DNA of 12,709 nt. It comes from Spirulina sp. (GTDB taxonomy: Bacteria; Cyanobacteriota; Cyanobacteriia; Phormidesmidales; Phormidesmidaceae). Shown here piece after piece: positions 2 through 12,709 of the stretch (within the stretch, counting starts at the first letter, position 1; each line of letters opens with the position of its first letter). The notes beneath the pieces were generated by a model, which searched no databases, had not been told where the DNA came from, and saw nothing but the letters and a program-made list of their open reading frames with translations. The stretch lies in assembly GCA_044070495.1 (NCBI GenBank), contig JBIPSI010000061.1, forward strand, positions 1-12,709, given 5' to 3'. The position numbers were made by a program, and so were the translations under genes.

Positions 2-220
2 CACAGCATTGAAGAAGCGTTGTTGCTCTCCGACCGGATTGTGATGATGACCCGTGGCCCCGCCGCCCGCATCGACGAAATTTTGGAGGTGCCCTTCCCC
101 CGTCCGCGCAACCGCGAAACCATCGAACAACACCCCGCCTACCACACCCTCAAGGCCGAAATGGAAAGCCACCTCTACCGCGAAACCCGCGCCGTAGAAG
201 AGGCCCGGATTAGCCGGTAG
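2..220 (+). CDS. cynD: C-terminal part of an NrtD/CynD-type ABC transporter ATP-binding protein (5' end outside window)
   Basis: Frame 2 is open from base 2: HSIEEALLLSDRIVMMTRGPAARIDEILEVPFPRPR, the H-loop and C-terminus typical of NrtD/CmpD/CynD. The position directly upstream of cynS supports cynD. Confidence 0.75.
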   Translation, partial: HSIEEALLLSDRIVMMTRGPAARIDEILEVPFPRPRNRETIEQHPAYHTLKAEMESHLYRETRAVEEARISR

Positions 221-450: not shown

Positions 451-894
451 ATGACTGTTTCTGCGATTACCGAAACGCTACTAGCCGCTAAGAAGGCCGC
501 TGGCCTCAGCTTTGCTGACCTAGAAGCCAAGACGGGCTACGACGAAGTGTGGATTGCTTCGGTGTTCTACCGGCAGGCCAGTGCCTCGGTGGAAGAAGCA
601 ACCCAATTGATTGAAGCCATCGGAGCCGATGCATCTTTGATTGATGCCCTAACTGACTTTCCGGTGAAGGGCAGCCTGGATCCGGTGATTCCCACCGACC
701 CGCTGATCTACCGTTTCTACGAAATCATGCAGGTCTACGGGATGCCCATGAAAGCGGTGATTCACGAAAAATTTGGCGACGGCATTATGAGCGCTATTGA
801 CTTCACCCTAGATGTCGAAAAGGTGGAAGATCCCAAGGGTGATCGGGTCAAGGTCGTGATGTGCGGCAAGTTTTTACCCTATAAAAAGTGGTAG
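451..894 (+). CDS. cynS: Cyanate hydratase (cyanase)
   Basis: 147 aa with signature motifs [26 protein letters not shown] and [11 protein letters not shown]-like AGAGGA upstream. Confidence 0.97.
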
Positions 895-964
895 CCCTTA
901 CCCTGCGATCCCCTCAGATCGCACCATAGCAACACGCTATTCCCCCCTCCTAACTCACAAAATA

Positions 965-1007
965 GCGGACATTACGGGCCTTCAGGCTACCGGATGTCCG
1001 TTTTTTT
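965..1007 (+). terminator. Intrinsic terminator downstream of cynS
   Basis: Stem GCGGACAT...ATGTCCGT with an inner GCC-TTCA-GGC hairpin, followed by a T7 tract (1001-1007). Confidence 0.7.
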
Positions 1008-1075
1008 GCCTGGTTCTACCCACACATCCTAGATTTGGACAAGACCCTAGGAAATCTTGAAACATCTTGCAGAAG

Positions 1076-1089
1076 GTATAGATCATTAC
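1076..1089 (+). promoter_or_regulatory. NtcA binding site upstream of the ABC binding-protein gene
   Basis: GTA-TAGATCAT-TAC is an exact GTA-N8-TAC followed by an A-tract. At 22-nt spacing there is only a non-canonical -10-like TCTAAT (1112-1117). Confidence 0.7.
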
Positions 1090-1093
1090 AAAA

Positions 1094-1116
1094 TTGATTT
1101 AGAATAACCATTCTAA
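1094..1116. promoter_or_regulatory. Candidate TetR operator 1
   Basis: TTGATTTAGA-ATAACCAT-TCTA(A) contains the inverted repeat TTAGAAT-AACC-ATTCTAA (1099-1116). The same TTGATTTAGA-N8-TCTA frame occurs at 10293-10314. Confidence 0.6.
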
Positions 1117-1254
1117 TAGAAGTCACCACAGCGCCCTGCTAACCCAGCCATAGGCTGTGTTGAGGGATGGGATGAGCCTGCACGACGAGACGGTTGAGTG
1201 GCTGGCCTTGGCTGGTGGTAGATTAATCCGTTGTCCTAAACATGAGAGCGATGT

Positions 1255-2871
1255 ATGGCTTTTAGTGCGGCATCCCTTGCAAGTCAACCTATGGCGAAAC
1301 GGTCATACCAACTAGGATCTGGTGCCCCGTGGGCCGCCGCCTGTGCGATGTGTGGGCAGTTCCATCTGCCCCAAGATCATCAGCGGGTAATGGCCGATAT
1401 GCCCCAGGATCCGGCGGATTTATTGGCAGATTTAACCCAAATGGGGTTCTACCGTCCCCAGTCTTTGGCGGTGGCCGAAGCCATTAGTCAGGCGGAGGTG
1501 CGTACTGCTTTATTTGTGAAAATGGCGGGCCGAAATGATCCCAAACGGGAGCGTCTTGTCCTAGATTTAATCAAGCTAGCGGGTGGATTAGACCAAGCTT
1601 TCGCTGCCGCCTTTGGTCCTAAAGCAGGTGAGTTTTTTACTGATGCTCAGATTAAAAGTCAATTCACTCGCCGCAAGTTTTTGCAGAATGTGGCGGTAGG
1701 TGCAGCCCTAGTTACCCTGGCTAACTGTGCCCAACAACCGGAGCAGGATGCTGCCGAAGAATCTACCTCTGGCGGCACTGGGGAACTAGAAAAAACGGAT
1801 CTCAGCATTGCCTTTTTGCCGATCACCTGTGCCACGCCGATCATTATGTCTAAACCCCTGGGCTTCTATGAGCGCCATGGGCTAAATGTGACGTTGATGA
1901 AGTATGCAAGCTGGTCGATTGTGCGAGATGCGGCCATTGCCGGGGAACTGGATGCTTACCACATGCTAGCTCCCATGCCCATTTCGATGTCTTTAGGGCT
2001 AGGATCAACCGCTTTCCCGATGAAGTTGGCCAGCATTGAAAACAACAACGGTCAGGGCATTGCCGTCGCCAAAAAACACCTCGGAAAAGTAAACGGCCCC
2101 GCCGATTTTGCTGGCATGACCATCGGGATTCCCTTTGATTATTCCAACCACAATTTGCTGATTCGCTACTACCTGGCCTCCGGTGGTCTCGATCCCGACA
2201 AGGATGTGCGCCTACTGATTATGCCGCCGCCGGATGCCATTGCCCAAATGTCCACCGGGCAAATTGATGCCTTCATTTTGCCCGATAACTTCACTCAGCG
2301 AGTGGTGTTTGATGACATTGGTTTCATCCATATTTTGACCAAGGATCTCTGGCCCGGTCATCCCTGCTGTGCCTTTGCGGCTTCCCAGAATTGGATTGAT
2401 GAGAATCCCAACACTTTCCGTGCGGTCAATAAGGCCATTATTGATGGCGCTAATTACGCCAACGATCCAGCCAACCGAACAGAAGTCGCCGCCGCCATTG
2501 CCCCCCGCGAATACCTCAACCAACCCGTTGAAGTGTTAGATGCCGTGATGACGGGTAACTTTGAAGACGGTCAAGGCAATACCCTGGAGGTACCGGATCG
2601 GATTTACTTTGATCCCTATCCTTGGAAGAGTTTTTCAGGCTGGATTTCTACCCAGTTGGTGCGGTGGGGTTATATGCCCACGGATCAGGCTAACTACGAT
2701 GAAATTGCCAACCAGGTTTTCTTAACTGATCTAGCACGGGAATTATCGGAGGAGTTAGGGGTAGATGCGCCTAGCGAATTAACCCGAGTAGAGAACCTAA
2801 AAACGGCTCCCTTTGACCCCGCCGATCCTGAAGGTTACCTCAAGGCTCAGGTTGATAAGTTTGGCCGTTAG
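1255..2871 (+). CDS. NrtA/CmpA/CynA-family ABC substrate-binding lipoprotein with an N-terminal Cys/His extension
   Basis: LEKTDLSIAFLPITCATPIIM, ASWSIVRD, HMLAPMP and YPWKSF are NrtA-like motifs. Internal Tat motif TRRKFL (aa 138-143) and lipobox LANC (aa 155-158). N-terminal CAMCGQFH. Confidence 0.88.
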   Translation: MAFSAASLASQPMAKRSYQLGSGAPWAAACAMCGQFHLPQDHQRVMADMPQDPADLLADLTQMGFYRPQSLAVAEAISQAEVRTALFVKMAGRNDPKRERLVLDLIKLAGGLDQAFAAAFGPKAGEFFTDAQIKSQFTRRKFLQNVAVGAALVTLANCAQQPEQDAAEESTSGGTGELEKTDLSIAFLPITCATPIIMSKPLGFYERHGLNVTLMKYASWSIVRDAAIAGELDAYHMLAPMPISMSLGLGSTAFPMKLASIENNNGQGIAVAKKHLGKVNGPADFAGMTIGIPFDYSNHNLLIRYYLASGGLDPDKDVRLLIMPPPDAIAQMSTGQIDAFILPDNFTQRVVFDDIGFIHILTKDLWPGHPCCAFAASQNWIDENPNTFRAVNKAIIDGANYANDPANRTEVAAAIAPREYLNQPVEVLDAVMTGNFEDGQGNTLEVPDRIYFDPYPWKSFSGWISTQLVRWGYMPTDQANYDEIANQVFLTDLARELSEELGVDAPSELTRVENLKTAPFDPADPEGYLKAQVDKFGR

Positions 2872-2895
2872 GAAATCCTAGACAAGCAAATCCCC

Positions 2896-2951
2896 GTAGG
2901 TTGGGTACAGCAAAGCGGAACCCAACAGTGCCCTATACCAATGGGTTCCGC
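2896..2951. repeat. GTAG-type REP, family B, with a truncated inverted partner
   Basis: GTAGGTTGGGTACAGCAAAGCGGAACCCAACA (2896-2927) differs at 2 positions from the reverse complement of 8558-8589. Remnant TGGGTTCCGC at 2942-2951. Confidence 0.8.
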
Positions 2952-2974
2952 AATTTATCATTGGAGGTATCGTG

Positions 2975-3493
2975 ATGTCCGCGAGTCGGTATCGCTTTGA
3001 ACTGGCGCGCTCTGCCCAGGAATTTGCGGCCTACTATGAGCTTAGAAAGGCAATTTTCTGCGAAGAGCAGGGGCTTTTTGTGGGCAATGATGAGGATGAT
3101 TTAGACCCAGTTTCCTATCCGATCATTGCCATTGATGACGAAGCACCTACGGGTCAAAACGTGGTGGGTGTAGTGCGCATTTACGAAGCTCAGCCTCGCC
3201 TTTGGTATGGTGGACGACTGGGAGTTCATCCCGACTATCGACGGGTGGGACGCATTGGCAAAGGGCTAATTCACAAAGCTGTAACAACAGCTAATGGCTG
3301 GGGCTGCGACCGCTTTTTAGCCACGGTGCAGCTCCAAAATGTGCGTTTTTTCCGTCGCCTGCATTGGGACACCATTGATGAAATGCAGGTACTCGACCAT
3401 CCCCATCATCTAATGGAAGCCGACCTGGAATTCTATCCCCCCAGCGACGAAGATCGTCCAACTCTCATGAGGTCTATGCTTCAGGTGTCCTAA
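2975..3493 (+). CDS. nitE: GNAT N-acetyltransferase, MSMEG_0567/Sll0786 (Nit1C) family
   Basis: LRKAIFCEEQGLF, WYGGRLGVHPDYR and FLATVQLQNVRFF motifs. GGAGG at 2963-2967 fits ATG 2975 (GTG 2972 is an alternative). Adjacent to an sll0787-like gene. Confidence 0.88.
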   Translation: MSASRYRFELARSAQEFAAYYELRKAIFCEEQGLFVGNDEDDLDPVSYPIIAIDDEAPTGQNVVGVVRIYEAQPRLWYGGRLGVHPDYRRVGRIGKGLIHKAVTTANGWGCDRFLATVQLQNVRFFRRLHWDTIDEMQVLDHPHHLMEADLEFYPPSDEDRPTLMRSMLQVS

Positions 3494-3506
3494 CAAAAAA
3501 ACGTCC

Positions 3507-4481
3507 ATGTTGACTGAGTTGATCACTCAAATTCGTCCAGCTTTAGGGCTAGCGCAAAAGCAGGATATTCAAACCGCTGCCCGTCATTTGGGGCGATTCG
3601 TCCAACACAACCAAACCCGCGAACCCATTGCTTTGGGGGATGACTGTGCCGCCATTCCCGACGGTGAGGGCTATCTACTGCTGGCGGCGGAAGGGCTGTG
3701 GCCGCCCCTGGTGGAGGCGGATCCCTGGTTTGCGGGCTGGTCGGCGGTGCTGGTGAATGTCAGCGATATTTACGCCATGGGGGGCCGTCCCTTGGCGGTG
3801 GTGGATGCCCTGTGGAGCCCCTCTACGGAACAGGCAGATGCGCTCTGGCAGGGGATGTTAGCGGCCTCGAAGGCGTTTAATGTGCCGATTGTGGGCGGTC
3901 ACACGAATTGCCACAGCCCCTACAATGCGCTGTCTGTGGCGATTTTGGGACGGGCGAATCGGCTCATTTCCAGTTTTGCCGCCCAGCCGGGACAGATGCT
4001 CGTGCTGGCCACCCAGCTCGCCGGGCGACTCCATCCTCAATATCCCTTTTGGGATGGAGCGACCCAGGCCGAACCAGCGGATTTGCAACGACAGTTAGCC
4101 GTTCTACCCGCCATCGCCGAGCAAGGGCTGTGTGGGGCGGGGAAGGATGTCAGCATGGGCGGCATTTTGGGCACCACCCTCATGCTGCTGGAAACCTCCG
4201 GCTGTGGGGCGGTAGTGGATGTGGCGGCGATTCCTTGCCCAGAGGCTGTACCCCTAGAAACCTGGCTGCGCTGTTTCCCCAGCTACGGCTTTTTGCTGAC
4301 CGTTGATTCCCAAAATTTTGCCGCCGTTCAGCAACAATTTCAGGCGGTCGGCATTGCCTGTGCTGCCATTGGGCGCATTGTGGCGGAACCTCAGTTGACG
4401 CTTACCCATGGCGACGAAACCGCCGTTTTTTGGGATTTTTCCACCCAGTCCCTCACTGGATTTGCGCCTCAACCAATCTAA
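3507..4481 (+). CDS. nitF: AIR synthase (PurM/ThiL/SelD fold)-related protein, Sll0787 (Nit1C) family
   Basis: LGDDCAAIPDG, VNVSDIYAMGGRP, VPIVGGHTN, KDVSMGG and FPSYGFLL motifs, plus the Nit1C context. Confidence 0.9.
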   Translation: MLTELITQIRPALGLAQKQDIQTAARHLGRFVQHNQTREPIALGDDCAAIPDGEGYLLLAAEGLWPPLVEADPWFAGWSAVLVNVSDIYAMGGRPLAVVDALWSPSTEQADALWQGMLAASKAFNVPIVGGHTNCHSPYNALSVAILGRANRLISSFAAQPGQMLVLATQLAGRLHPQYPFWDGATQAEPADLQRQLAVLPAIAEQGLCGAGKDVSMGGILGTTLMLLETSGCGAVVDVAAIPCPEAVPLETWLRCFPSYGFLLTVDSQNFAAVQQQFQAVGIACAAIGRIVAEPQLTLTHGDETAVFWDFSTQSLTGFAPQPI

Positions 4482-4612
4482 GAGGGCGTTTGAAAAGGGT
4501 TGCCTCAGGTGCGATTGGTCGCTAGATCGGTGCAAATCTACGGGATTTTTGACGACTGAGGCTGACCTCATCGGTATAACTTGGGACAAGCTTCGGCTTT
4601 TCAAACGTCCTC
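4482..4612. mobile_element. 131-bp MITE with 16-bp terminal inverted repeats and a TAA target-site duplication
   Basis: Left end GAGGGCGTTTGAAAAG (4482-4497) and right end CTTTTCAAACGTCCTC (4597-4612) are 15/16 complementary. Flanked by TAA at 4479-4481 and 4613-4615. No transposase ORF. Confidence 0.85.
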
Positions 4613-4672
4613 TAAGTTCGCGATACGCCCAGGACTTCATTAAAATCCTGCCGTAACGGATGACATGCCACC

Positions 4673-5815
4673 ATGAAAATTGCCCTCCTCACCTACTCCA
4701 CCAAACCCCGTGGTAGCGTCGTCCACACCTGGGAACTGGCCACGGCCCTGCACCACCTCGGCCATCAGGTCACGGTTTTTGCCCTAGATAAGGACGGCCA
4801 AGGCAGCGACCGATCCCTCCCCTGTACCTTCCACGGCATTCCCGCTGGCCCCGCCCCGGCGAATATGGACGCCCTCATTCAGCAGCGCATCGACGAGTTC
4901 GCGACGGGCTTAAGTCAGGCTGAAGACCGCTACGACATCTACCACGCCCAGGACTGCCTGGGGGCCAACGCCCTGGTGCAGCTCAAACAGCAGGGCAAAG
5001 CGTCCCATGTGGTGCGGACGGTGCATCACATTGAGGACTTTGCGAGTTTCTACCTGCGCCAGTGCCAGGACAAGTCGATTCGGCAGGCGGATCTGTGTTT
5101 GTGCGTCAGCTCTTACTGGCAAAAAGCCCTCGCTGAGGATTACTACATCACCGCCCAGCGAGTGGTTAATGGGGTGGATATTCAGCGGTTTAGTCCCTAC
5201 CCCAAGTCCACTGACGCCGATTTGAAAACAGCCTACAACCTAACAGGGTTTCCCATTTATTTGACCGTGGGCGGCATTGAACCCCGCAAAAATTCCCTTG
5301 GTTTGCTGGAAGCCTTCGCCCAGGTGCGTCGCCATCATCCCCAGGCCCAGTTGGTGATCGCCGGAGGGGCTACCCTATTTGATTACCAAACCTATCGCGA
5401 TCAATTTTTTCAGCGGGTCGCCGCCCTAGGGCTGACGGTAGGCTTAGATATCATTTTGCCGGGAGTTGTGCCCGATGCTGATTTGCCGGGACTCTATCGT
5501 TGTGCCGACGTATTCTGCTTCCCTTCGGTGAAAGAGGGCTGGGGTCTAGTGGTGCTAGAAGCCATTGCGGCAGGGCTACCTGTTATTACCGCCAATCAAC
5601 CACCTTTTACCGAATTCCTAACGCCCGATCAGGCGCTGCTGATACCGCCAGAATCCGTTACAGATTTGACCCAAGCCATGATCGCCGCCGCCCAGCCTGA
5701 CCAGGCCCAAACCCTAGGGCAAAATAGTCAAACGATTTTGTCTCAATACACCTGGCAAATCTCCGCCCAACAACACCTCACGGCCTACCATTCTTTGCTG
5801 AATCAACGCTGTTGA
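4673..5815 (+). CDS. GT4 glycosyltransferase, MSMEG_0565 family (Nit1C-associated)
   Basis: MKIALLTYSTKPRGSVVH, YHAQDC, RTVHH, VGGIEPRKN and FPSVKEGWGLVVLEA (GT4 EX7E) motifs. Confidence 0.9.
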   Translation: MKIALLTYSTKPRGSVVHTWELATALHHLGHQVTVFALDKDGQGSDRSLPCTFHGIPAGPAPANMDALIQQRIDEFATGLSQAEDRYDIYHAQDCLGANALVQLKQQGKASHVVRTVHHIEDFASFYLRQCQDKSIRQADLCLCVSSYWQKALAEDYYITAQRVVNGVDIQRFSPYPKSTDADLKTAYNLTGFPIYLTVGGIEPRKNSLGLLEAFAQVRRHHPQAQLVIAGGATLFDYQTYRDQFFQRVAALGLTVGLDIILPGVVPDADLPGLYRCADVFCFPSVKEGWGLVVLEAIAAGLPVITANQPPFTEFLTPDQALLIPPESVTDLTQAMIAAAQPDQAQTLGQNSQTILSQYTWQISAQQHLTAYHSLLNQRC

Positions 5816-5824
5816 TTACCCTGA

Positions 5825-6526
5825 TTACCAGGCCCTTGGTTCAAAGCTGGCGTCGTTGAGAATTTGCATGGTTTCCCCAGTCTGGGCTAATACAAATAAT
5901 CCCTGACGATAGGCATAGCGATCTGCGCCTTGGTCAAAGGCGATGCCAGCCACCGCCCCATAGAGTTGTCGGTCGGCGTGTTCTGGGAAAAAATGGTGGA
6001 ATCGCTGCAAATCTTCCACGAATTCCTTGATGTCATCAACGCTGAGGCTGCTTTTTACTTCCACCGCCAAAATATGGTTCTGATTCTGCACCAATACATC
6101 AATTTCTAGGGTGTCGCTGTCAAGAATTTTTTGTACCCGCTGGCTCACCTGATGTACAGGGATACCTCGATCTAAAAACAAGGTTTTGCAGGCTGGAGCC
6201 ACCATATTTTCCACAAACAGCCCCCATTTGCCGCCCAAGGCTCTGAGTTGTTGGTTCAACTGACGGTTAGATTCCGCCATATCCCGCCGCGTTTCCGCAA
6301 CGACCCGATCCAACTCCTGACGCGATTCCTGGAACTTGCGGTCAGTCTCCTGGAACTTACGGTCAGTCTCTTTAATCAACCGATCCAACTCCTGGCGCGA
6401 TTCCTGGAACTTACGGTCAGTCTCCTGGAATTTGCGGTCAGTTGCCTGGAATCTGCGTTCTGTCTCTTTTTGCGCCTCTGCTAGTTCGGCCAGGAGACGC
6501 CATACATCGTCCGCTGTGGTAGCCAT
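5825..6526 (-). CDS. Coiled-coil repeat protein with a C-terminal PD-(D/E)XK nuclease-like domain (DUF3782-like)
   Basis: MATTADDVWRLL start, ETDRKFQ heptad repeats, then LGGKWGLFVE, EIDVLV...AVEVK, FFPEH and LYGAVAG...YAYRQGLFV. Confidence 0.8.
   Translation of the reverse strand: MATTADDVWRLLAELAEAQKETERRFQATDRKFQETDRKFQESRQELDRLIKETDRKFQETDRKFQESRQELDRVVAETRRDMAESNRQLNQQLRALGGKWGLFVENMVAPACKTLFLDRGIPVHQVSQRVQKILDSDTLEIDVLVQNQNHILAVEVKSSLSVDDIKEFVEDLQRFHHFFPEHADRQLYGAVAGIAFDQGADRYAYRQGLFVLAQTGETMQILNDASFEPRAW
6306..6442. repeat. Intragenic 75-bp-period duplication built from 21-bp (7-codon) units
   Basis: 6306-6367 and 6381-6442 are near-identical and encode TDRKFQETDRKFQESRQELDR twice. 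Confidence 0.85.
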
Positions 6527-6553
6527 AGGTCTTTTTGATCCCGCTATGGCTCT

Positions 6554-6559
6554 ATTATA
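6554..6559 (-). promoter_or_regulatory. Putative -10 box (TATAAT) for the DUF3782-like gene
   Basis: The minus strand reads TATAAT at 6559-6554, 27 nt upstream of ATG 6526. No recognisable -35. Confidence 0.4.
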
Positions 6560-6582
6560 AGTTGACCCAAGCTTTCGGATAG

Positions 6583-7182
6583 CTAGGTGTTTTGGAGGGC
6601 AGCGGCGAGGAGATGACGGGCCACATCGAACCCCTGGCGCAGGCGGTCGGTGTCTTGGTAGAGTTTGCCCATCAGCATGGCTCCCTCTAGGACGGTCATA
6701 ATTTGGCCCGCGAGAATTTGTGGATCAACGCTTGGTTTAAGGTGTCCCTGATCCCGCGCCTGGATTAAGCGTTCGGCAATGGCCCCTTCCCACTGGCTGA
6801 AAATTTGAACGAGGTGTTCCCGAAAGCTCGGATCCTGTTCAGCTAAATCAACAATTAAGTTACCCAGCAAACATCCGCCACAAAAGGGTTCTTTATGCTG
6901 TTTTTTCTCTAGGAAATCTATAATCCAGAGTAGTTGTTCAATGGGAGAATCACTCTGCTGCTGGGAAGGCTCCAGGATATTAGTTTTCAACTTTTCCCAC
7001 TCAAAATCAATCAGGGCATGGCCAAGCTCTTGTTTGGAGGAAAAGTAGTTATAAAAACTGCCCGACGACGCGCCACTGAGGTCAAAAAGCTTGCTCAACC
7101 CAGTGGCCGTTAACCCGTTGCGATGAACGGTATTAATCACCGATTCCAGAATGTCTTCGCGTGTACGCTTGAGGTTTACCAT
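6583..7182 (-). CDS. TetR/AcrR-family transcriptional regulator, NemR/LmrA/YxaF-like
   Basis: N-terminal HTH TREDILES...GLTATGLSKLFDLSGASSGSFYNYFSSKQELG and the subfamily motif GCLLGNL (here CGGCLLGNL). Confidence 0.92.
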   Translation of the reverse strand: MVNLKRTREDILESVINTVHRNGLTATGLSKLFDLSGASSGSFYNYFSSKQELGHALIDFEWEKLKTNILEPSQQQSDSPIEQLLWIIDFLEKKQHKEPFCGGCLLGNLIVDLAEQDPSFREHLVQIFSQWEGAIAERLIQARDQGHLKPSVDPQILAGQIMTVLEGAMLMGKLYQDTDRLRQGFDVARHLLAAALQNT

Positions 7183-7243
7183 AATTCACCCGATACCAGG
7201 TCGGTTTCGCTTAACGATATCCTAAATTCAACAACACTCCAGA

Positions 7244-7319
7244 GATCCCCCTAAATCCCCCTTGCCAAGGGGGACTTTAACTCCAGCTCCCCCCTTGGCA
7301 AGGGGGGCTAGGGGGGATC
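7244..7319. repeat. GC-rich palindromic dispersed repeat of a type common in cyanobacterial intergenic regions
   Basis: GATCCCCCTAAATCCCCCTTGCCAAGGGGGACTT...CCCCCCTTGGCAAGGGGGGCTAGGGGGGATC: two internal hairpins inside a larger inverted repeat. Confidence 0.8.
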
Positions 7320-7347
7320 AATCCCCGCCAGATGAGCGTCACAAGAC

Positions 7348-8436
7348 CTAGGAACGCTCGAAGGTGGCGAGGGCAGAACAGGCTCCACATTTGGCGCAGC
7401 CTGCGTTGATGGTGTCTGAGGTCATTCCAGCGGCTTGCAGCAGGTTTCCCACCTGTTGATAGAGGGTAAACATGAAGTCAGCACTGGGGGCGGGGTGGTG
7501 GGCGAGGGGCGTTTCGGAGATGGGCACAAAGGGCACCACAAAGGGATAGACGCCCAGGCGAATTAGGCGTTCGCTGGTGTCAACGAGGGTTTCTAGGCTG
7601 TCCCCCAGCCCCGCCAGCAGGTAGGTGCTCACTTGGCCCCAGCCGAAGACCTCCACAGCGGCCTCAAAGGCTTCAAAGTAGTAGGATACGGGCACTTCGG
7701 CCTTGCCGGGCATGATTCGCGCCCGAACGGGTTCCTCCACCGCTTCCAGGTGCATTCCCAGGCTGTCGATGCCTGCGTCTTTCATGCGTTGGAACCAGAC
7801 AAAATCGTCGGGGGGTTCGCACTGGGCCTGGATTGGCAGGGGCACACGGGCTTTGATGGCGCGGGCGCATTCACTCAGGTAGGCAGCCCCGCGATCCTTG
7901 GAATTGGGTGTTCCGGTGGTCATAATCATGTGCGTCACCCCGTCGAGGCGCACGGCGGCTTCGGCCACTTCTGCCAGTTGGTCTGGGGTTTTGCGGGCAA
8001 TGGTGCGGTCTGCCGCCAAGGATTTTTCGATGGCGCAAAACTGGCAGGCGGTAGACTCATCCCGGTAGCGCATACAGGTTTGCTGCACGGTGGTCGCCAA
8101 CACATCATGGCTGTGGAGCAGGGCAATTTTCCAGTAGGGGATGCCGTCGGCGGTGGAAAGCCCGTAGAACTGGGGCGCTTTGGGAAAGGAAATCGACCCG
8201 ATGGGCTGATGATCGTAGGTCAGATGGCCCTGATCTGGGCCGCAGGGTTCCACCGCATAGGGCGACTGGTGGGCCGTATCGGTGTAGATCGGCACCATAA
8301 TCGTGCGGCCATCAATGGTAACAGCCTTGTGATCCGATGGCCCTGCGCCGCCCTTGCGTCCGGCTACACCAGGGGTTGTGTCGGGCAATTGCAGGCCACG
8401 GGTTTGCAGTTCTGTCATTAACCGTTGGGGTTCCAT
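7348..8436 (-). CDS. nitD: Radical SAM protein, MSMEG_0568/Sll0785 (Nit1C) family
   Basis: GRKGGAGPSDH, DVLATTV, Cys motif CMRYRDESTACQFC (CX9CX2C) and C-terminal GCAKCGACS. The start is moved to ATG 8436 (MEPQRLMTELQ; ATG 8442 is an alternative) because the ORF-track extension to 8580 runs through a REP element. Confidence 0.9.
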   Translation of the reverse strand: MEPQRLMTELQTRGLQLPDTTPGVAGRKGGAGPSDHKAVTIDGRTIMVPIYTDTAHQSPYAVEPCGPDQGHLTYDHQPIGSISFPKAPQFYGLSTADGIPYWKIALLHSHDVLATTVQQTCMRYRDESTACQFCAIEKSLAADRTIARKTPDQLAEVAEAAVRLDGVTHMIMTTGTPNSKDRGAAYLSECARAIKARVPLPIQAQCEPPDDFVWFQRMKDAGIDSLGMHLEAVEEPVRARIMPGKAEVPVSYYFEAFEAAVEVFGWGQVSTYLLAGLGDSLETLVDTSERLIRLGVYPFVVPFVPISETPLAHHPAPSADFMFTLYQQVGNLLQAAGMTSDTINAGCAKCGACSALATFERS

Positions 8437-8474
8437 GGGCATCACAAAAAATGAATAAAACGATCCTGAAATAG

Positions 8475-8589
8475 CTGACCTAATACCGAAAAATTCTGAT
8501 ATTTCGTAGGTTGGGTGGCGCGATAGCAGAACCCAACAAAATCCTTCTTCTCGTGAGTGTTGGGTTCCGCTTCGCTGCACCCAACCTAC
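8475..8589. repeat. REP doublet family B (8506-8589) with a 31-bp CTGAC leader
   Basis: GTAGGTTGGGTGGCGCGATAGCAGAACCCAACA (8506-8538), spacer, then TGTTGGGTTCCGCTTCGCTGCACCCAACCTAC (8558-8589). Leader 8475-8505 matches 9808-9838 at 19/31 positions. Confidence 0.85.
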
Positions 8590-8594
8590 CTTGG

Positions 8595-9635
8595 CTAAGG
8601 CTCAGGGAAAATAGATTCCGGTAGCGGGAACGGCACTATTGGCGCGGCGGCTTCTGAAGAGTTGTGCTCGGAAGGATTAGGCGCAACGAAATCAGGCGAT
8701 TGGGCCATAGGCTGCATTACTGACCAGGCTTTTTGATTGACCTGAAGCTGAAGCAAATCCGGGCGGGCATAGTGGCCAACGGAATCCATCATGCGTTTGC
8801 GTACCCAAATGTCACGTAGGTCTAAATCCGCAATCACTAAGCCTTCGCCTTCGGTTAAGGGCGTACCCATAATTTCGCCCTTGGGGTTAATAATCGCTGT
8901 AAAACAGCCGCCGCTCAGCGCTTTATGATAGGACTCATCGGCGGTAATTTGTTGCTTTTGTTCTGGCGTTAGCCAGCCCGTGGCATTCACCACAAAACAG
9001 CCCGATTCTAGGGCATGGTGGCGAATAGTGACCTCCATTTGGTCAGCAAAAATCTGCCCCACCATTGACCCTGGAAACTGACTACAGTGAATTTGCTCCT
9101 GCTGGGCCATCAGGCTATAGCGAGCCAGGGGGTTGTAATGTTCCCAACAGGCCAGGGCACCGACTCGGCCCACGGCGGTATCCACGGTGCGCAGTCCGGC
9201 CCCATCGCCATTGCCCCACACCATGCGTTCGTGGTAAGTGGGGGTGATTTTTCGCCGCTTTAGCAACAGGGTGCCATCGGCATCAAAGATAAGTTGGGTG
9301 TTGTAAATCGAGCCGCCATCTCGCTCGTTAATTCCCAGCACTATCACCATGCCATAGGAACGTGCTGCCCGACTGACGGCATCCACTATTGGCCCCGGCA
9401 CCGTCACCGCTTCTTCGTAGAGTTTGAGGTGAGCCGCCCCCATTTTCATCGGCGGTTCAATAAACGAAAAATAGGGGTAGTAGGGAATGAAGGTTTCTGG
9501 GAAAACGATCAGTTGAACGCCCTCTTTTGCCGCTGATGCAATGGCATCCAGGACTTTTTCTGTCGTACCTTCTCGGCTAAATAGTACGGGACTAATCTGG
9601 GCAGCGGCAGCTCGAATCGTTTGGGAATAATCCAT
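8595..9635 (-). CDS. nitC: Nitrilase, Nit1C / Sll0784 (Nit6803-like) family
   Basis: Catalytic triad contexts VFPETF (Glu), [11 protein letters not shown] (Lys) and LACWEHYNP (Cys), plus [13 protein letters not shown]. Directly upstream of the Nit1C radical SAM gene. Confidence 0.95.
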
Positions 9636-9724
9636 GGTTAATCAATACCCTGGGACGATAACGCAATAGAAAACTAAACAGATCGGCAGAATTTTGTATC
9701 GATGAAAGTTGAAATCCAAATTGC

Positions 9725-9787
9725 CTGACACAAGGCCAAAAATTGTTGATATCTGGCGGGTTAAGTGGCCAACGGCAGAACCCAATA
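9725..9787. repeat. Decayed copy of leader + REP family B left arm
   Basis: CTGACACAAGGCCAAAAATTGTTGAT...GTGGCCAACGGCAGAACCCAATA aligns colinearly with 9808-9871 (offset 83 bp). Confidence 0.65.
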
Positions 9788-9807
9788 AGCTCTAACGCCC
9801 TGGCGGA

Positions 9808-9938
9808 CTGACACAACGCCGAAAAGCCTTGATCCCCCGTAGGTTGGGTGGCGCGATAGCAGAACCCAACAAGCCCAAAATCCTCGGCGAATGTTGGGTT
9901 CCGCTTCGCTGCATCCAACCTACTTTGGAGATGTGTCA
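9808..9938. repeat. REP doublet family B (9839-9923) inside a TGACACA...TGTGTCA inverted-repeat frame
   Basis: The left arm is identical to 8506-8538. The right arm has 1 mismatch to 8558-8589 and the spacer differs. TGACACA at 9809-9815 and TGTGTCA at 9932-9938. Confidence 0.85.
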
Positions 9939-10161
9939 AGCAATCAGCCTAAAGCCTTGGTGAGTGATGACCGAGACTTTAATGCGTTCGCCTGACACGA
10001 TTCCCGTCTAGTGGGCCTTGGGCTGCCAATTTTTGGGTTGCCAGTTCAAAACCTTATTGCCGAGTCAGTCGCCATCATATGACCAATATTCGACGACTAA
10101 CCATATTTCACGCCCCACCAGAGGGCCTACCAAGCGGCCCACCCCATGTCTGACCAACCAG

Positions 10162-10193
10162 GCCGAATCCGCGATGTGCCGAATCCGCGATGT
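10162..10193. repeat. Perfect 16-bp tandem duplication
   Basis: GCCGAATCCGCGATGT x2. Confidence 0.9.
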
Positions 10194-10251
10194 TTTTACG
10201 CCCAAGGCTGCCCCGACATTAGGACATTACCCCGCCAATACCGCTAGATTC

Positions 10252-10293
10252 GTATCCATGGATACAGTTTATCGGGGATAGGTTACCTAGATT
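10252..10293 (+). promoter_or_regulatory. Canonical NtcA-activated promoter for the OsmC-like/ACAD/ABC operon
   Basis: Fully palindromic GTATCCATGGATAC (10252-10265, GTA-N8-TAC), then exactly 22 nt, then TAGATT (TAN3T, 10288-10293). Confidence 0.85.
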
Positions 10294-10314
10294 TGATTTA
10301 GATAGACTTTTCTA
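10293..10314. promoter_or_regulatory. Candidate TetR operator 2, overlapping the predicted transcription start
   Basis: TTGATTTAGA-TAGACTTT-TCTA has 14 fixed positions identical to 1094-1115. Confidence 0.6.
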
Positions 10315-10326
10315 TTTGGTAGAGCT

Positions 10327-10848
10327 ATGTCAGACGCAACGACGACCCTAACGCCCATTTCCGTAGATGGCTTGAAGGACTTGGGGGAAAAGAACCGCGC
10401 CAACCCCGCCGACAAGACCCTGAAGGTAAAAACCGTCTGCGAAGGCAAGTTTCGCAGCCTGAATTACGCCCGCGACCTAGACGCCTTTGTGATTGACGAA
10501 CCCCCCGGTTTGCTGGGCGACAACACCGCCCCCAACCCCTCGGAAATTGTGCTTGGGGCCTTTGGATCCTGTCTGGCCGTAGGTTTGCAGGCTAACGCAG
10601 CGGCGCGGGGCATCACCCTCACCAAGCTGGAAATTTCCCTGGAGGGCGACATCAATATCACCAGCACTTGGGGCACCGGAGAACTGGCCAAGCCCCAGAT
10701 TGGCTTCACCGATGTGCGCGTCAAGGTAGACATCGACGGCGATGCCCCCAAGGAAGTGCTGGCGGAAATGGTGGCCCACGCTAATGAGTGGTCCCCCGTT
10801 TCGGCCACCCTGCGCAACCCCATGCCCGTTTCCGTGGAAATGGTCTAA
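10327..10848 (+). CDS. OsmC/Ohr-family protein
   Basis: IDEPPGLLGDNTAPNPSEIVLGAFGSC motif and C-terminal SPVSATLRNP (CPV-equivalent position). Confidence 0.88.
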   Translation: MSDATTTLTPISVDGLKDLGEKNRANPADKTLKVKTVCEGKFRSLNYARDLDAFVIDEPPGLLGDNTAPNPSEIVLGAFGSCLAVGLQANAAARGITLTKLEISLEGDINITSTWGTGELAKPQIGFTDVRVKVDIDGDAPKEVLAEMVAHANEWSPVSATLRNPMPVSVEMV

Positions 10849-10878
10849 CCTTACTCCCCCTGGGTTTAGACCCAATCC

Positions 10879-10965
10879 GTAGGGGCGAGGTCTCCTCGCC
10901 CCAGCCGTCTTCACCCCAACCGTCTTCGCCCTAATTGTTCTCGTCCTAACCGTTCTCGCCCTAAC
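10879..10965 (+). repeat. GTAG-type REP (third family) followed by a degenerate 15-bp tandem array
   Basis: GTAGGGGCGAGGTCTCCTCGCCCC (10879-10902), then AGCCGTCTTCACCCC / AACCGTCTTCGCCCT / AATTGTTCTCGTCCT / AACCGTTCTCGCCCT / AAC. Confidence 0.8.
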
Positions 10966-11191
10966 TGGCGGGTGGATGGCCTGACCAGCCCTATTCCTGC
11001 CCGCTGTCTGCTCCCAAAGGTGAGTTAATCTTCCTCCTTGACCTGGCTTGTTTCCCTTGGCCCCATGCTGCCTGTGCCCCCTTAGTCAGGTGCAACTCCA
11101 CCCAAACTGTGTGCTAGAAGTCTGATTTTTCCTAGCTTCTGGCCTAAGAATACGTCACGATAACCTCAGGCCAACATCATCCTTTCGACTA

Positions 11192-12349
11192 ATGCAAACA
11201 CTCCAAACCGCACCGTTAAAAAATGCCTCGCTGACCCATGAATCAGCCGTTGCTGCCGTTCGGTCGGTGGTGCAGGAGGCCCTAACGCCCAAGGTGCAAG
11301 ATATTGACCTCAAGGGCGAGTACCCAGCGGAAATTTTGGCGCAATTAGGTGAGGCCGGAGCCTTTGCCCATGCCGTATCTCCTGAATTTGGCGGCACGGG
11401 GCTGGGGCTGCGAGCCACCATTCAAGCCATCGAAGAAGTATCCAAGGCCTGCGTTTCCACAGGATTTATGACCTGGTGCCAGGTGGCCTGTACTTGGTAT
11501 TTGCAAAAGACCGATAATACAGCCCTCGCCTCAACGATGCTGCCGGAGATTGTCTCCGGACAAAAGCTAGCCGGAACGGGGCTGTCTAACCCGATGAAGC
11601 ACTTTGCTGACATCGAAAAAATTGCCCTGACGGCGGTGCCCGTGGAGGGTGGCTTTGAAATTAGCGGCTTACTACCCTGGGTATCTAACCTGGGGCCAGG
11701 GCATGAGTTTGGGGTGGCCGCCAAAATTGCCGACAGCGATGAGTATCTCATGGCGGTGGTGTCCGATGCTTTGGAGGGCCTGACCCTGCGCTGTAATGCC
11801 CACTTCATCGCCCTAGAGGGGACGGGTACCTATAGCTGCGTGTTCCGCCAGGTGTTTGTGCCCCACAGCCGCGTGTTGGCCGCCCCCTGCGAAACCTATG
11901 TGCGCTGCATTCGTCCCGGTTTTATCCTCACCCAGGTGGGCATGGGCTTGGGGTTGGCAGAAAGCTGCATTGAGCTGATTCGCCGCTCCAACCAACGCCT
12001 GGGCCATGTGAATCAGTTTTTGGACGACCAAGCCGACGACCTGGCTATGGATTTGCAAACCGCCCGCGAACGCACCTACGCCCTGGCGGATCGTTTGGAC
12101 GGCTGCACCGGAGCCGTGGAAGATGTGGCACTGATGCGGGAAGTAATCCAGGCCCGCATTGCTGGGTCAGAGTTATCACTACGGGCGGCCCAGTCGGTCA
12201 TGCTCCACGCCGGAGCCCGCGCCTACGTCCATGGCAGCGCCCCAGAACGCAAACTGCGGGAAGCCTACTTTGTGGCCATTGTCACCCCCGCCCTCAAGCA
12301 CCTGAAAAAAATGCTCCACGCCCTGCCAGAACCCGCCCTCCTGGCCTAA
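11192..12349 (+). CDS. Acyl-CoA dehydrogenase-fold flavoprotein (possibly a flavin-dependent monooxygenase)
   Basis: ACAD-fold elements: IDLKGEYP, SPEFGGTGLG, IEEVSKACVSTGF, LPWVSN, FRQVFVP and HAGARAY...ERKLREA. Confidence 0.85.
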   Translation: MQTLQTAPLKNASLTHESAVAAVRSVVQEALTPKVQDIDLKGEYPAEILAQLGEAGAFAHAVSPEFGGTGLGLRATIQAIEEVSKACVSTGFMTWCQVACTWYLQKTDNTALASTMLPEIVSGQKLAGTGLSNPMKHFADIEKIALTAVPVEGGFEISGLLPWVSNLGPGHEFGVAAKIADSDEYLMAVVSDALEGLTLRCNAHFIALEGTGTYSCVFRQVFVPHSRVLAAPCETYVRCIRPGFILTQVGMGLGLAESCIELIRRSNQRLGHVNQFLDDQADDLAMDLQTARERTYALADRLDGCTGAVEDVALMREVIQARIAGSELSLRAAQSVMLHAGARAYVHGSAPERKLREAYFVAIVTPALKHLKKMLHALPEPALLA

Positions 12350-12362
12350 GTAGGGGATCTCA

Positions 12363-12397
12363 GTTGGGGGCAGTCTGTCTGTGGACGGCCCCCCAAC
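12363..12397 (+). other. Intercistronic GC-rich stem-loop
   Basis: GTTGGGGGC...GCCCCCCAAC with an inner GTC/GAC pair. No T-tract follows, so it is more likely an mRNA stabiliser than a terminator. Confidence 0.5.
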
Positions 12398-12445
12398 CCA
12401 CCGTTCCGCCCCTTGCCGTCTTTCCGCCGCCTTTGGTAGACCCCC

Positions 12446-12709
12446 ATGAGCACCACTCCTGCAAACAGTTATCTTTCGGCGGATGCGCCCTCGCCCACGG
12501 CGCAGCTATCCATCCGTCAGGTTGCCAAGGTGTTTCCGGGTAAGCGTGGCCTGATTAACAAACTCTCTGGCAAAACCAGCCGCGATTTTGTGGCCATCCA
12601 AGACATTAATTTGGAAATCGAACCGAATACCTTCGTGTCGATTATTGGCCCCTCCGGCTGCGGTAAATCTACCCTGCTGAACATGATCGCGGGCCTCAGC
12701 CCGATCAGC
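12446..12709 (+). CDS. NrtD/SsuB/TauB-type ABC transporter ATP-binding protein, N-terminal part (runs off window; absent from ORF track)
   Basis: My translation from ATG 12446: MSTTPANSY...[10 protein letters not shown]...[37 protein letters not shown], containing Walker [10 protein letters not shown]. Confidence 0.92.

Follow-up and report, generated by a model that had tools for sequence, protein, structure and literature searches.

A conserved pair of an OsmC-like protein and an acyl-CoA dehydrogenase-fold flavoprotein accompanies cyanate genes in cyanobacteria and proteobacteria

A contig of 12,709 nucleotides from the cyanobacterium Spirulina sp. (assembly GCA_044070495.1, JBIPSI010000061.1; here the window, meaning the whole stretch of DNA analyzed) carries the cyanase gene cynS together with genes for an OsmC-like thiol protein and for a flavoprotein with the acyl-CoA dehydrogenase (ACAD) fold. 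Comparison of gene neighborhoods gives good support to the view that this OsmC-like/ACAD-fold pair forms a conserved, uncharacterized module that is accessory to the cyanate clusters of both cyanobacteria and proteobacteria. The cyn core is known; what is new here is the pair itself, which has never been studied and travels with cyanase genes in many bacteria. We regard a functional tie of the pair to cyanate uptake and cyanase as very probable. Our preferred reading, to which we give about an even chance, is that the window is a nitrogen-regulated cyanate-use island and the pair an accessory module that converts a relative of cyanate to cyanate. An earlier note on this DNA had proposed a similar module, and its interpretation is partly supported: the module is real, apparently nitrogen-controlled and tied to cyanate genes, but the arguments from a cysteine-lined cleft and from Nit1C genes do not hold generally. 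The genes on which the argument turns were called by open reading frame (ORF) listing with Pfam and NCBIfam profile scans, and are as follows.

451..894, plus strand: cynS, cyanase (TIGR00673, 213.3 bits against a cut-off of 113.3, residues 3-147; PF02560, 5e-37)
1255..2871, plus strand: CynA-family substrate-binding protein, type 1 paralogue, 538 residues (Pfam NMT1_2, 3.7e-71)
10327..10848, plus strand: OsmC-like one-cysteine thiol protein (PF02566, 1.7e-20)
11192..12349, plus strand: ACAD-fold flavoprotein without a catalytic glutamate (AlphaFold2 predicted local distance difference test score 94.9, predicted template modeling score 0.93)

The cyanase is assigned by a full-length match to an equivalog model above its cut-off. 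Scanning species-representative genomes with a 17-row alignment yielded 569 flavoprotein relatives, of which the best 80 loci were retrieved (30 cyanobacterial and 50 from other phyla, mostly proteobacteria). Gene families were mapped in these loci by tblastn after ORF clustering and Pfam naming, and spurious antisense ORF families were removed. The flavoprotein family is small and distinct, with 130 clusters (50% identity) at E 1e-30 against 3,402 at 1e-3. Of the best 80 among the 569 relatives, 73 have an OsmC-like gene beside the flavoprotein gene, 61 a gene for a CynA-type binding protein, and 37 cynS. In the 39 full-flank loci, for which 8 kb or more of sequence is available to each side of the ACAD gene (9 cyanobacterial, 30 other), the OsmC-like gene is never missing, a CynA-type binding protein is encoded in 35, and 27 have cynS within 10 kb (4/9 cyanobacterial, 23/30 other). 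A TetR gene is found in all nine cyanobacterial full-flank loci. The 30 others carry a sigma-54/GAF regulator placed like CynF (24 loci), DUF302 (12 loci) and a rubredoxin::NorW-like reductase (12 loci). Profiling of neighborhoods and genomes has thus borne out the co-occurrence of these genes that the earlier note had expected. Full-text literature searches brought up no unrelated characterized function of the homologs, which that note had named as a possible objection, and no paper that connects cynS or thiocyanate metabolism with a gene of the OsmC-like or ACAD-like kind.

In 56 of 74 scorable loci the ACAD gene is immediately preceded, on the same strand, by a gene for an OsmC-like protein or a rhodanese. 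An apparent replacement of the OsmC-like gene by rhodanese at five loci was rejected as an artefact of antisense ORF families, the OsmC-like gene being present there too. In four Pseudanabaena-type loci (L043, L045, L046, and L050) all genes form a one-strand array in the order OsmC-ACAD-cynA-cynB-cynD-cynS-TetR; other arrangements are rhodanese-OsmC-ACAD-cynABD-cynS-TetR (L109) and OsmC-ACAD-cynS (L106, and G131 with a 118-bp gap). The common non-cyanobacterial layout comprises cynS-cynD-cynB-cynA, divergent from the gene of the sigma-54 regulator, followed by OsmC-ACAD-DUF302-rubredoxin::NorW. A divergent cynF/cynABDS layout has been published (PMC6627978), and the common non-cyanobacterial layout corresponds to the cynFABDS layout, as given in the accessible part of that paper, plus extra genes behind the regulator gene. 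The operon includes a two-domain rhodanese gene at L109 and at 9 of the 50 non-cyanobacterial loci, and many carriers of the pair are sulfur oxidizers, as judged from record titles.

The association is also seen at the level of whole genomes. Of 250 other genomes of the same cyanobacterial class (at least 90% complete), 31 have an ACAD orthologue at E 1e-158 or better; cynS is present in 30 of these against 137 of the 219 without ACAD, and 16 or more of the 31 have it within 11 kb of the ACAD gene. A single genus accounts for ten of these 16 close cases, and five further families for the other six. For the proteobacteria, the profile was drawn from 200 genomes in the order to which a Thiobacillus carrier belongs, one of them unpublished (G314, with cynS and no ACAD gene). 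Here ACAD is found in 13 genomes, seven of which have cynS, against 38 of the 187 ACAD-negative genomes, and cynS lies within 11 kb in five of the 13.

The promoters of the two plus-strand units and the regulator gene of the window contain the following elements.

1076..1089, plus strand: NtcA-type box GTATAGATCATTAC upstream of the binding-protein unit (GTA-N8-TAC match)
1100..1115, plus strand: palindrome TAGAATAACCATTCTA, candidate TetR operator (TAGA-N(4-8)-TCTA)
6583..7182, minus strand: TetR-family regulator (TetR_C_13, 1e-21)
10252..10265, plus strand: NtcA-type box GTATCCATGGATAC upstream of the OsmC-like gene (GTA-N8-TAC match)
10299..10314, plus strand: palindrome TAGATAGACTTTTCTA, candidate TetR operator (TAGA-N(4-8)-TCTA)

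The boxes are positioned 166 bp before the start of the binding-protein gene and 62 bp before that of the OsmC-like gene, and each is followed 22 nt downstream by a -10-like hexamer (TCTAAT for the 1076 box, TAGATT for the 10252 box), so that both have the sequence features of NtcA promoters as predicted sites. GTA-N8-TAC occurs only twice in the window, a count that is not rare in itself (0.8 expected; 39 of 200 shuffles reach two). The TAGA-N(4-8)-TCTA pattern is confined to the two promoters, with three matches against 0.17 expected, a number reached in none of 200 shuffles. Upstream of the OsmC-like gene, the palindrome is found in 21 of 27 cyanobacterial loci against none of 44 non-cyanobacterial ones, and an NtcA box in 11 of 27 against 1 of 44. 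TetR proteins with 53-55% identity to that of the window are encoded beside OsmC-ACAD-ABC operons lacking Nit1C genes, and the regulator of the window is therefore assigned to the OsmC/ACAD-cyn module. The palindrome, which lies at the promoters and is conserved together with the TetR gene, is probably its operator. The matching pairs of NtcA box and operator reported by the earlier note are thereby confirmed at the sequence level for both units. Nitrogen control of the module is supported by the predicted NtcA boxes in cyanobacteria and by the divergent, CynF-placed sigma-54 regulators elsewhere, a likeness to the nitrogen control of cynFABDS. Upstream of the 10252 box there is a perfect 16-bp tandem duplication (10162-10193), and the 343-bp spacer between the OsmC-like and ACAD genes contains a 15-bp repeat of 4.7 copies (10895-10965).

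The predicted structure of the flavoprotein displays the three-domain ACAD fold, of which Pfam matches the N-terminal domain alone. Searches with Foldseek highlight short-chain and butyryl-CoA dehydrogenases (2vig, 1jqi, 1buc) as the nearest folds, with TM-scores of 0.83-0.86 but only 16-22% identity. Unlike these enzymes, the flavoprotein lacks the catalytic glutamate: when it is aligned with 3pfd, 4kto, and 7w0j, the YEG position is occupied by T365 and the helix-G position of isovaleryl-CoA dehydrogenase by T247/Q248. T365 and P366 are invariant in the flavoprotein alignment (A2). With threonine at both catalytic-glutamate positions, the protein is not expected to be a working acyl-CoA dehydrogenase. 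E357 was considered as catalytic base and rejected, since the alignment places it at the aspartate of the RDA motif. Within the family C87 and W95 are invariant and C96 is nearly so. In alignments to solved acyl-CoA dehydrogenases these residues fall on the N-domain helix that lines the acyl pocket, and the WVSN motif coincides with W-I-T-N, the flavin-contact motif of those enzymes. At one locus (L017; G016:C1:525307-526385) the flavoprotein gene is split in two by stop codons, and the OsmC-like and transporter genes are still present.

The OsmC-like protein shares the OsmC fold with the OsmC/Ohr thiol peroxidases and keeps the cysteine after the NPxE motif (C82, invariant in 47/47 sequences). 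Unlike in OsmC/Ohr, the second canonical cysteine, that of the CP motif, is a serine in 47/47 (WSPV motif), and there is an extra N-terminal cysteine, C38, conserved in 91%. It thus does not have the cysteine pair of two-cysteine OsmC/Ohr peroxiredoxins. On this protein the OsmC, Ohr, and SACOL1771 models reach 17-21 bits, where 86-166 would be required, and the peroxiredoxin subfamily models all fall far short of their cut-offs. Its conservation is unusually high, at about 60% identity between phyla.

The binding protein comprises a conserved N-terminal extension, a twin-arginine translocation (TAT) signal (TIGR01409, 19.5 bits against a cut-off of 16.7, residues 138-160), a lipobox, and a mature domain that aligns with NrtA (2g29, E 3e-50) and CmpA (2i48) at E about 1e-50. 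The protein shares 59% identity with a second binding protein of the same genome, SBP2 (G000:C66:6341-7981). In the alignment with NrtA, cleft cysteines C192, C371, and C372 match NrtA D73, E268, and K269. K269 and H196 are charge-balancing ligand-site residues of the NrtA nitrate site (PMC8786288). The window protein keeps H196 (H299) but has C372 in place of K269, and in this differs from the NrtA ligand set. Of further residues that we take to be NrtA ligands, W102 (W220) and Q155 (Q267) are kept and G240 is replaced by P343.

The window protein and SBP2 both carry the motifs ITCATP and GHPCCAF, and so do the binding proteins of two plain cynA-cynB-cynD-cynS operons (L100, L103), in whose fetched 13 kb no OsmC/ACAD pair is found; ITC(A/S)TP and HPCC motifs occur in most binding proteins of related loci. 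As the window protein shares its cleft motifs with the proteins of plain cynABDS operons, we class it as CynA-type, with predicted cyanate binding. The earlier note had seen in it an atypical NrtA-like protein whose cysteine cleft pointed to a special soft ligand. The relationship to NrtA and the cysteine cleft are both real, but this is a CynA paralogue, and the soft-ligand interpretation fails on the presence of the same cysteines in L100 and L103. By sequence comparison the cleft cysteines are a general mark of CynA-type proteins and no sign of a special soft ligand. Leptolyngbya-type genomes have two CynA paralogues, of which type 2 heads the cynABDS operon, and the orphan type 1 paralogue is usually found directly after the flavoprotein gene (L022-L024, L026, L032, L108). 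The window protein belongs to type 1 by its YASW, NNGQG, and YSNHN motifs and has no permease of its own.

Two further features of these binding proteins were observed. Cyanobacterial CynA-type proteins have a stretch of approximately 115-135 residues ahead of the TAT signal (window 1255-1760, residues 1-168; also in SBP2), comprising C-x(1-2)-C-G-x2-H-x4-H, then MPxxP, then LIxxAGGxxxAFxAAFGP. It is kept in 22 long homologs, both paralogues included, and has no Pfam family match. A domain ahead of a twin-arginine signal is unusual. A start at an internal Met for the 538-residue protein was rejected, given that the extension is conserved in these 22 homologs including the paralogue. Second, C192, C371, and C372 (window 1828-1830 and 2365-2370) occupy, in every CynA-type protein examined, the positions of CmpA glutamates that presumably bind calcium and of K269 in NrtA. 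The three cysteines might form a soft-metal site mediating cyanate binding. Binding by CmpA is calcium-mediated (PMC8786288). Genes for COG0523/CobW metallochaperones are found nearby in 5 of the 30 cyanobacterial loci. According to the accessible part of a preprint (10.64898/2026.10.08.757548), no CynA structure has been solved so far, and a non-canonical ABC transporter adjoins cynS in a Gloeobacter genome.

A working model for the window can be outlined. The known core would consist of cynA (SBP2), cynB and the head of cynD on another contig of the assembly, C66, with the tail of cynD and cynS opening the window. Additions to it would be the orphan CynA paralogue, the OsmC-like/ACAD pair with a second cynD copy, the TetR regulator, and a partial Nit1C set shuffled between them. 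Under nitrogen shortage, NtcA would switch on both plus-strand units, with the TetR protein at the TAGA-N(4-8)-TCTA palindrome repressing them until its ligand arrives. The CynA-type importer would bring in cyanate and the orphan paralogue perhaps a related anion; alternatively, the substrate may enter by diffusion. The flavoprotein, with flavin adenine dinucleotide and its pocket cysteine or cysteines, would convert a small relative of cyanate to cyanate, the OsmC-like cysteine would accept sulfur or an oxidizing equivalent, and cyanase would then release ammonium.

That the pair makes cyanate from a precursor at all is a tentative proposal, to which we give slightly less than an even chance. 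Thiocyanate is the first candidate substrate and cyanide the second; their conversion to cyanate is something we only infer. The preference for thiocyanate derives from the thiol proteins, the rhodanese in some operons, the sulfur-oxidizing carriers, and the description of the Thiobacillus thioparus scnABC cluster, which, in the part of the source available, contains cyanase, a NitT/TauT-family ABC transporter and a 'peroxiredoxin' (PMC5328954). Even so, thiocyanate as the precursor is rather unlikely. It is interesting to speculate, at a slightly lower likelihood still, that the pair could be a third route from thiocyanate (or cyanide) to cyanate, flavin- and cysteine-based, with sulfur leaving as a persulfide on the OsmC-like cysteine or a rhodanese. 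Such a route, at this same low likelihood, would be unrelated to cobalt thiocyanate hydrolase and copper thiocyanate dehydrogenase, and plugged into a cyanate importer and cyanase in cyanobacteria and sulfur-oxidizing proteobacteria. The proposed task, nitrogen release from thiocyanate, would be shared with thiocyanate hydrolase (scnABC) and copper thiocyanate dehydrogenase, one of which works via cyanate (PMC5328954). The window flavoprotein, for which activity on thiocyanate is conjecture, has no sequence or fold relation to the cobalt nitrile-hydratase-type or the copper enzymes. Thiocyanate hydrolase genes were not found among the flanking genes of four non-cyanobacterial loci and one cyanobacterial locus. 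Thiocyanate hydrolase is a member of the nitrile hydratase enzyme family, and a gene of the nitrile hydratase alpha-subunit family is present elsewhere in the genome of the window (G000:C7:109290-109847; PF02979, 2e-85).

A number of observations weigh against the conversion of a cyanate relative by the pair. No solved relative has a known small substrate, and the cleft cysteines, present in all CynA-type proteins examined, provide no argument for a soft ligand. Nor is cynS obligatory: 6 of the 13 ACAD-positive genomes of the proteobacterial order showed none, and 12 of the 39 full-flank loci have none within 10 kb. In cyanobacteria cynS is widespread (167/250) and its genome-level enrichment modest, and related genomes in both profiles are non-independent samples. 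At L015-L017, L034, L037, and L073, OsmC-ACAD occurs with an SsuA-like binding protein (ITD and H[AP]CCV motifs) and no cynS nearby, and cyanobacterial homologs at 58% identity lie in OsmC-ACAD-ATPase-SsuA-like binding protein-permease-TetR operons without cynS. The L016 operon adjoins genes for a TauD-like dioxygenase and a sulfur transferase (TIGR01244).

This last locus would fit an independent sulfur or organosulfur scavenging operon, made of a DszC/SfnB-like flavoprotein and an SsuABC-like importer, that merely lies beside cyanate genes. Sulfate-transporter genes at L012, an ArsR-rhodanese gene at L014, the many sulfur-oxidizing carriers, and weak matches to the SsuA family (1.5e-16) and SfnB (3.5e-11) point the same way, but the scores are far under the cut-offs (SsuA family, 60.5 against 163.5 bits; SfnB, 42.6 against 430.9; DszC, 21.3 against 850). 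With HsaA at 39.4 against 450 bits, the flavoprotein does not classify as a group D flavin monooxygenase, and the top Foldseek matches are acyl-CoA dehydrogenases, not DszC-type monooxygenases. The NtcA boxes at the promoters, the CynF-placed sigma-54 regulators of non-cyanobacterial loci, the CynA-type binding protein and the presence of cynS within 10 kb in most full-flank loci (27/39) also argue against such an operon, which we consider very unlikely. A separate sulfur-scavenging unit of OsmC-ACAD-ATPase genes, adjacent only by chance, had also been entertained; the NtcA boxes and the linkage to cynS overturned it.

In L113 (9087-9635) and L114 (9139-9696), two of the six ACAD-positive genomes of the proteobacterial order without cynS, the gene directly upstream of ACAD codes for an AhpD-like (CMD family) protein instead of an OsmC-like one. 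As OsmC and AhpD are both peroxidase-type thiol proteins, this swap of partner fits a protective role as well as that of a sulfur carrier. The main rival to the conversion of a cyanate relative is indeed a protective thiol-redox module, acting against peroxide, peroxynitrite, nitric oxide or thiol damage, which would be co-expressed with the cyanate/nitrite importer against reactive by-products and would make no cyanate. It is consistent with a partner that always has a peroxidase-type thiol fold (OsmC-like in every full-flank locus, AhpD-like in L113 and L114), with the NorW-like reductase (NF003437, 9e-81), with the scores of the sigma-54 regulator on NifA and NorR models, with the occurrence of the pair without cynS in some genomes, and with nitrite transport by CynABD of Synechococcus elongatus (PMC6627978). 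Yet the resolving cysteine of OsmC/Ohr is absent from the OsmC-like protein, a serine taking its place throughout, the tight and repeated operon fusion with cynS (for example, the 118-bp gap in G131) would be unexpected for a general stress system, and the NtcA boxes indicate nitrogen rather than oxidative-stress control. Overall, a protective role appears unlikely, at perhaps a one-in-four level of belief, and conversion of a cyanate relative remains the reading we prefer.

Between the binding-protein and OsmC-like genes, the window contains five genes of the Nit1C cluster, all scoring above the NCBIfam cut-offs.

2972..3493, plus strand: Nit1C GNAT acetyltransferase (TIGR04045, 233.5 against 68.45)
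3507..4481, plus strand: Nit1C AIR-synthase-like protein (TIGR04049, 467.5 against 321.3)
4673..5815, plus strand: Nit1C glycosyltransferase (TIGR04047, 504.3 against 259.85)
7348..8580, minus strand: Nit1C radical SAM protein (TIGR04043, 601.8 against 303.7)
8595..9635, minus strand: Nit1C nitrilase (TIGR04048, 565.6 against 502.6)

The family search covered TIGR04043 to TIGR04049. These five families are shared with Nit1C clusters of the Sll0783-Sll0787 / MSMEG_0565-0572 type, but the set in the window is split and rearranged, and the pair is no regular neighbor of Nit1C. The set is also incomplete, the flavin oxidoreductase (TIGR04046) and the Sll0783-family gene (TIGR04044) being located on contig C18. 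The C18 stretch (G000:C18:31763-36165) also holds a 40-residue nitrilase remnant, a second radical SAM gene (74.5% identical) and a second GNAT gene (66%), and the two sites look complementary. The pair could in principle belong to the Nit1C (nitrilase) pathway as an additional component and share its cyanide- or nitrile-derived intermediate. Nit1C genes flank it not only in the window but, in differing arrangements, in L019-L021, L023, L024, L026, L031, and L040, and 23 of the 31 ACAD-positive cyanobacterial genomes have the nitrilase, compared with 83 of the 219 others. Against this, the nitrilase lies within 10 kb of ACAD in only 2 of the 31 and in none of the 30 other full-flank loci, is separated from it by approximately 216 kb in G264, of the same family, and in the neighborhood map the 50 non-cyanobacterial loci are all devoid of Nit1C genes. 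We hold a part in the Nit1C pathway to be highly improbable. The coupling to Nit1C that the earlier note had described is thus present locally, but the link to the pair is lineage-restricted.

The window is an entire contig (C61) from a cyanobacterial assembly of 5.3 Mb in 74 contigs, and the closest named relatives of its proteins are from Phormidium, Nodosilinea, and Leptolyngbya-type strains. Both of its ends fall inside copies of a cynD-type ATP-binding cassette (ABC) ATPase gene.

2..220, plus strand: cynD-type (NrtD-like) ABC ATPase, 3' end, cut by the contig start (TIGR01184, last 54 profile positions)
12446..12709, plus strand: cynD-type ABC ATPase, second copy, 5' end, cut by the contig end (ABC_tran, 5.6e-10)

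In the relative G005, whose flavoprotein is 94% identical, a single 294-residue NrtD-like ATPase precedes cynS. The tail at the window start (first 72 codons) is 98.6% identical to the tail of this ATPase, and the head at the window end (last 88 codons) is 94% identical to its head and 95.5% to the C66 copy. The end of C66 carries SBP2 (546 residues), an NrtB-like permease and then an ATPase head; the start of C31 carries a matching ATPase tail and then a homolog of the gene that follows ACAD in G005 (DUF1348-family there). The ATPase gene is therefore present twice in this genome, in near-identical copies, and the assembly is interrupted within each. The cynA-cynB-cynD-cynS order is thus divided between C66 (SBP2, permease, ATPase head) and the window (ATPase tail, cynS), its join resting on synteny with G005 rather than on assembly. 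By the same synteny, the likely order is SBP2-permease-ATPase-cynS-(window)-ACAD-ATPase'-DUF1348 homolog. Every gene named by the earlier note is present in its place; its two ABC ATPases are the 3' and 5' ends of two near-identical copies of one cynD-type gene.

Genes of the DUF1348 (SnoaL-like) family accompany cyanate genes. One directly follows cynS in the plain cynABDS operon L103 (8783-9220), others adjoin OsmC-ACAD in 8 of the 30 cyanobacterial loci (among those named, L021:11163, L025, and L027-L032), and the homolog in the genome of the window is located at G000:C31:318-782, after the second ATPase copy. Between the glycosyltransferase and TetR genes lies a DUF3782/PD-(D/E)XK gene (5825-6526, minus strand) that had been absent from the discussion in the earlier note. 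It is multi-copy, with 11 further matches (39-85% identity) on other contigs, and contains 21-bp tandem repeats (6327-6370 and 6403-6464); it may be mobile or repeat-associated and have arrived with a rearrangement. The Pfam and NCBIfam scans assigned no ORF to a family in the 691 bp between the nitrilase and OsmC-like genes. At 9858-9905, in non-coding sequence, two inverted 14-nt arms enclose a loop of 20 nt.

Compared with the cynABDS cluster of Synechococcus elongatus PCC 7942 and the cynFABDS cluster of Pseudomonas pseudoalcaligenes CECT5344, the core in this genome has the same NMT1_2 binding protein, NrtB-like permease, NrtD-like ATPase, and cyanase (PMC6627978). In contrast to both, the window adds an orphan CynA paralogue, the OsmC-like/ACAD pair, a second cynD copy, and a TetR regulator, and non-cyanobacterial loci add, relative to cynABDS, DUF302, the rubredoxin::NorW fusion, and sometimes a rhodanese. 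None of these additions is mentioned with the two clusters in the accessible part of PMC6627978.

Cyanate is a recognized nitrogen source for cyanobacteria and nitrifiers, and the cyn genes are seen as a closed set of importer and cyanase. A conserved two-gene addition that apparently shares this nitrogen control, and does so across phyla, implies that the cyanate pathway has an unrecognized input or need, and the question is directly testable, given that the plain cynABDS operon exists in model strains without the pair. The pair may let cells use a further cyanate-like nitrogen source. If it does make cyanate from thiocyanate or cyanide, it would represent a new enzyme class for these compounds, would explain the presence of cyanase in many sulfur oxidizers, and would mean that cyanobacteria draw on more nitrogen sources than has been assumed.

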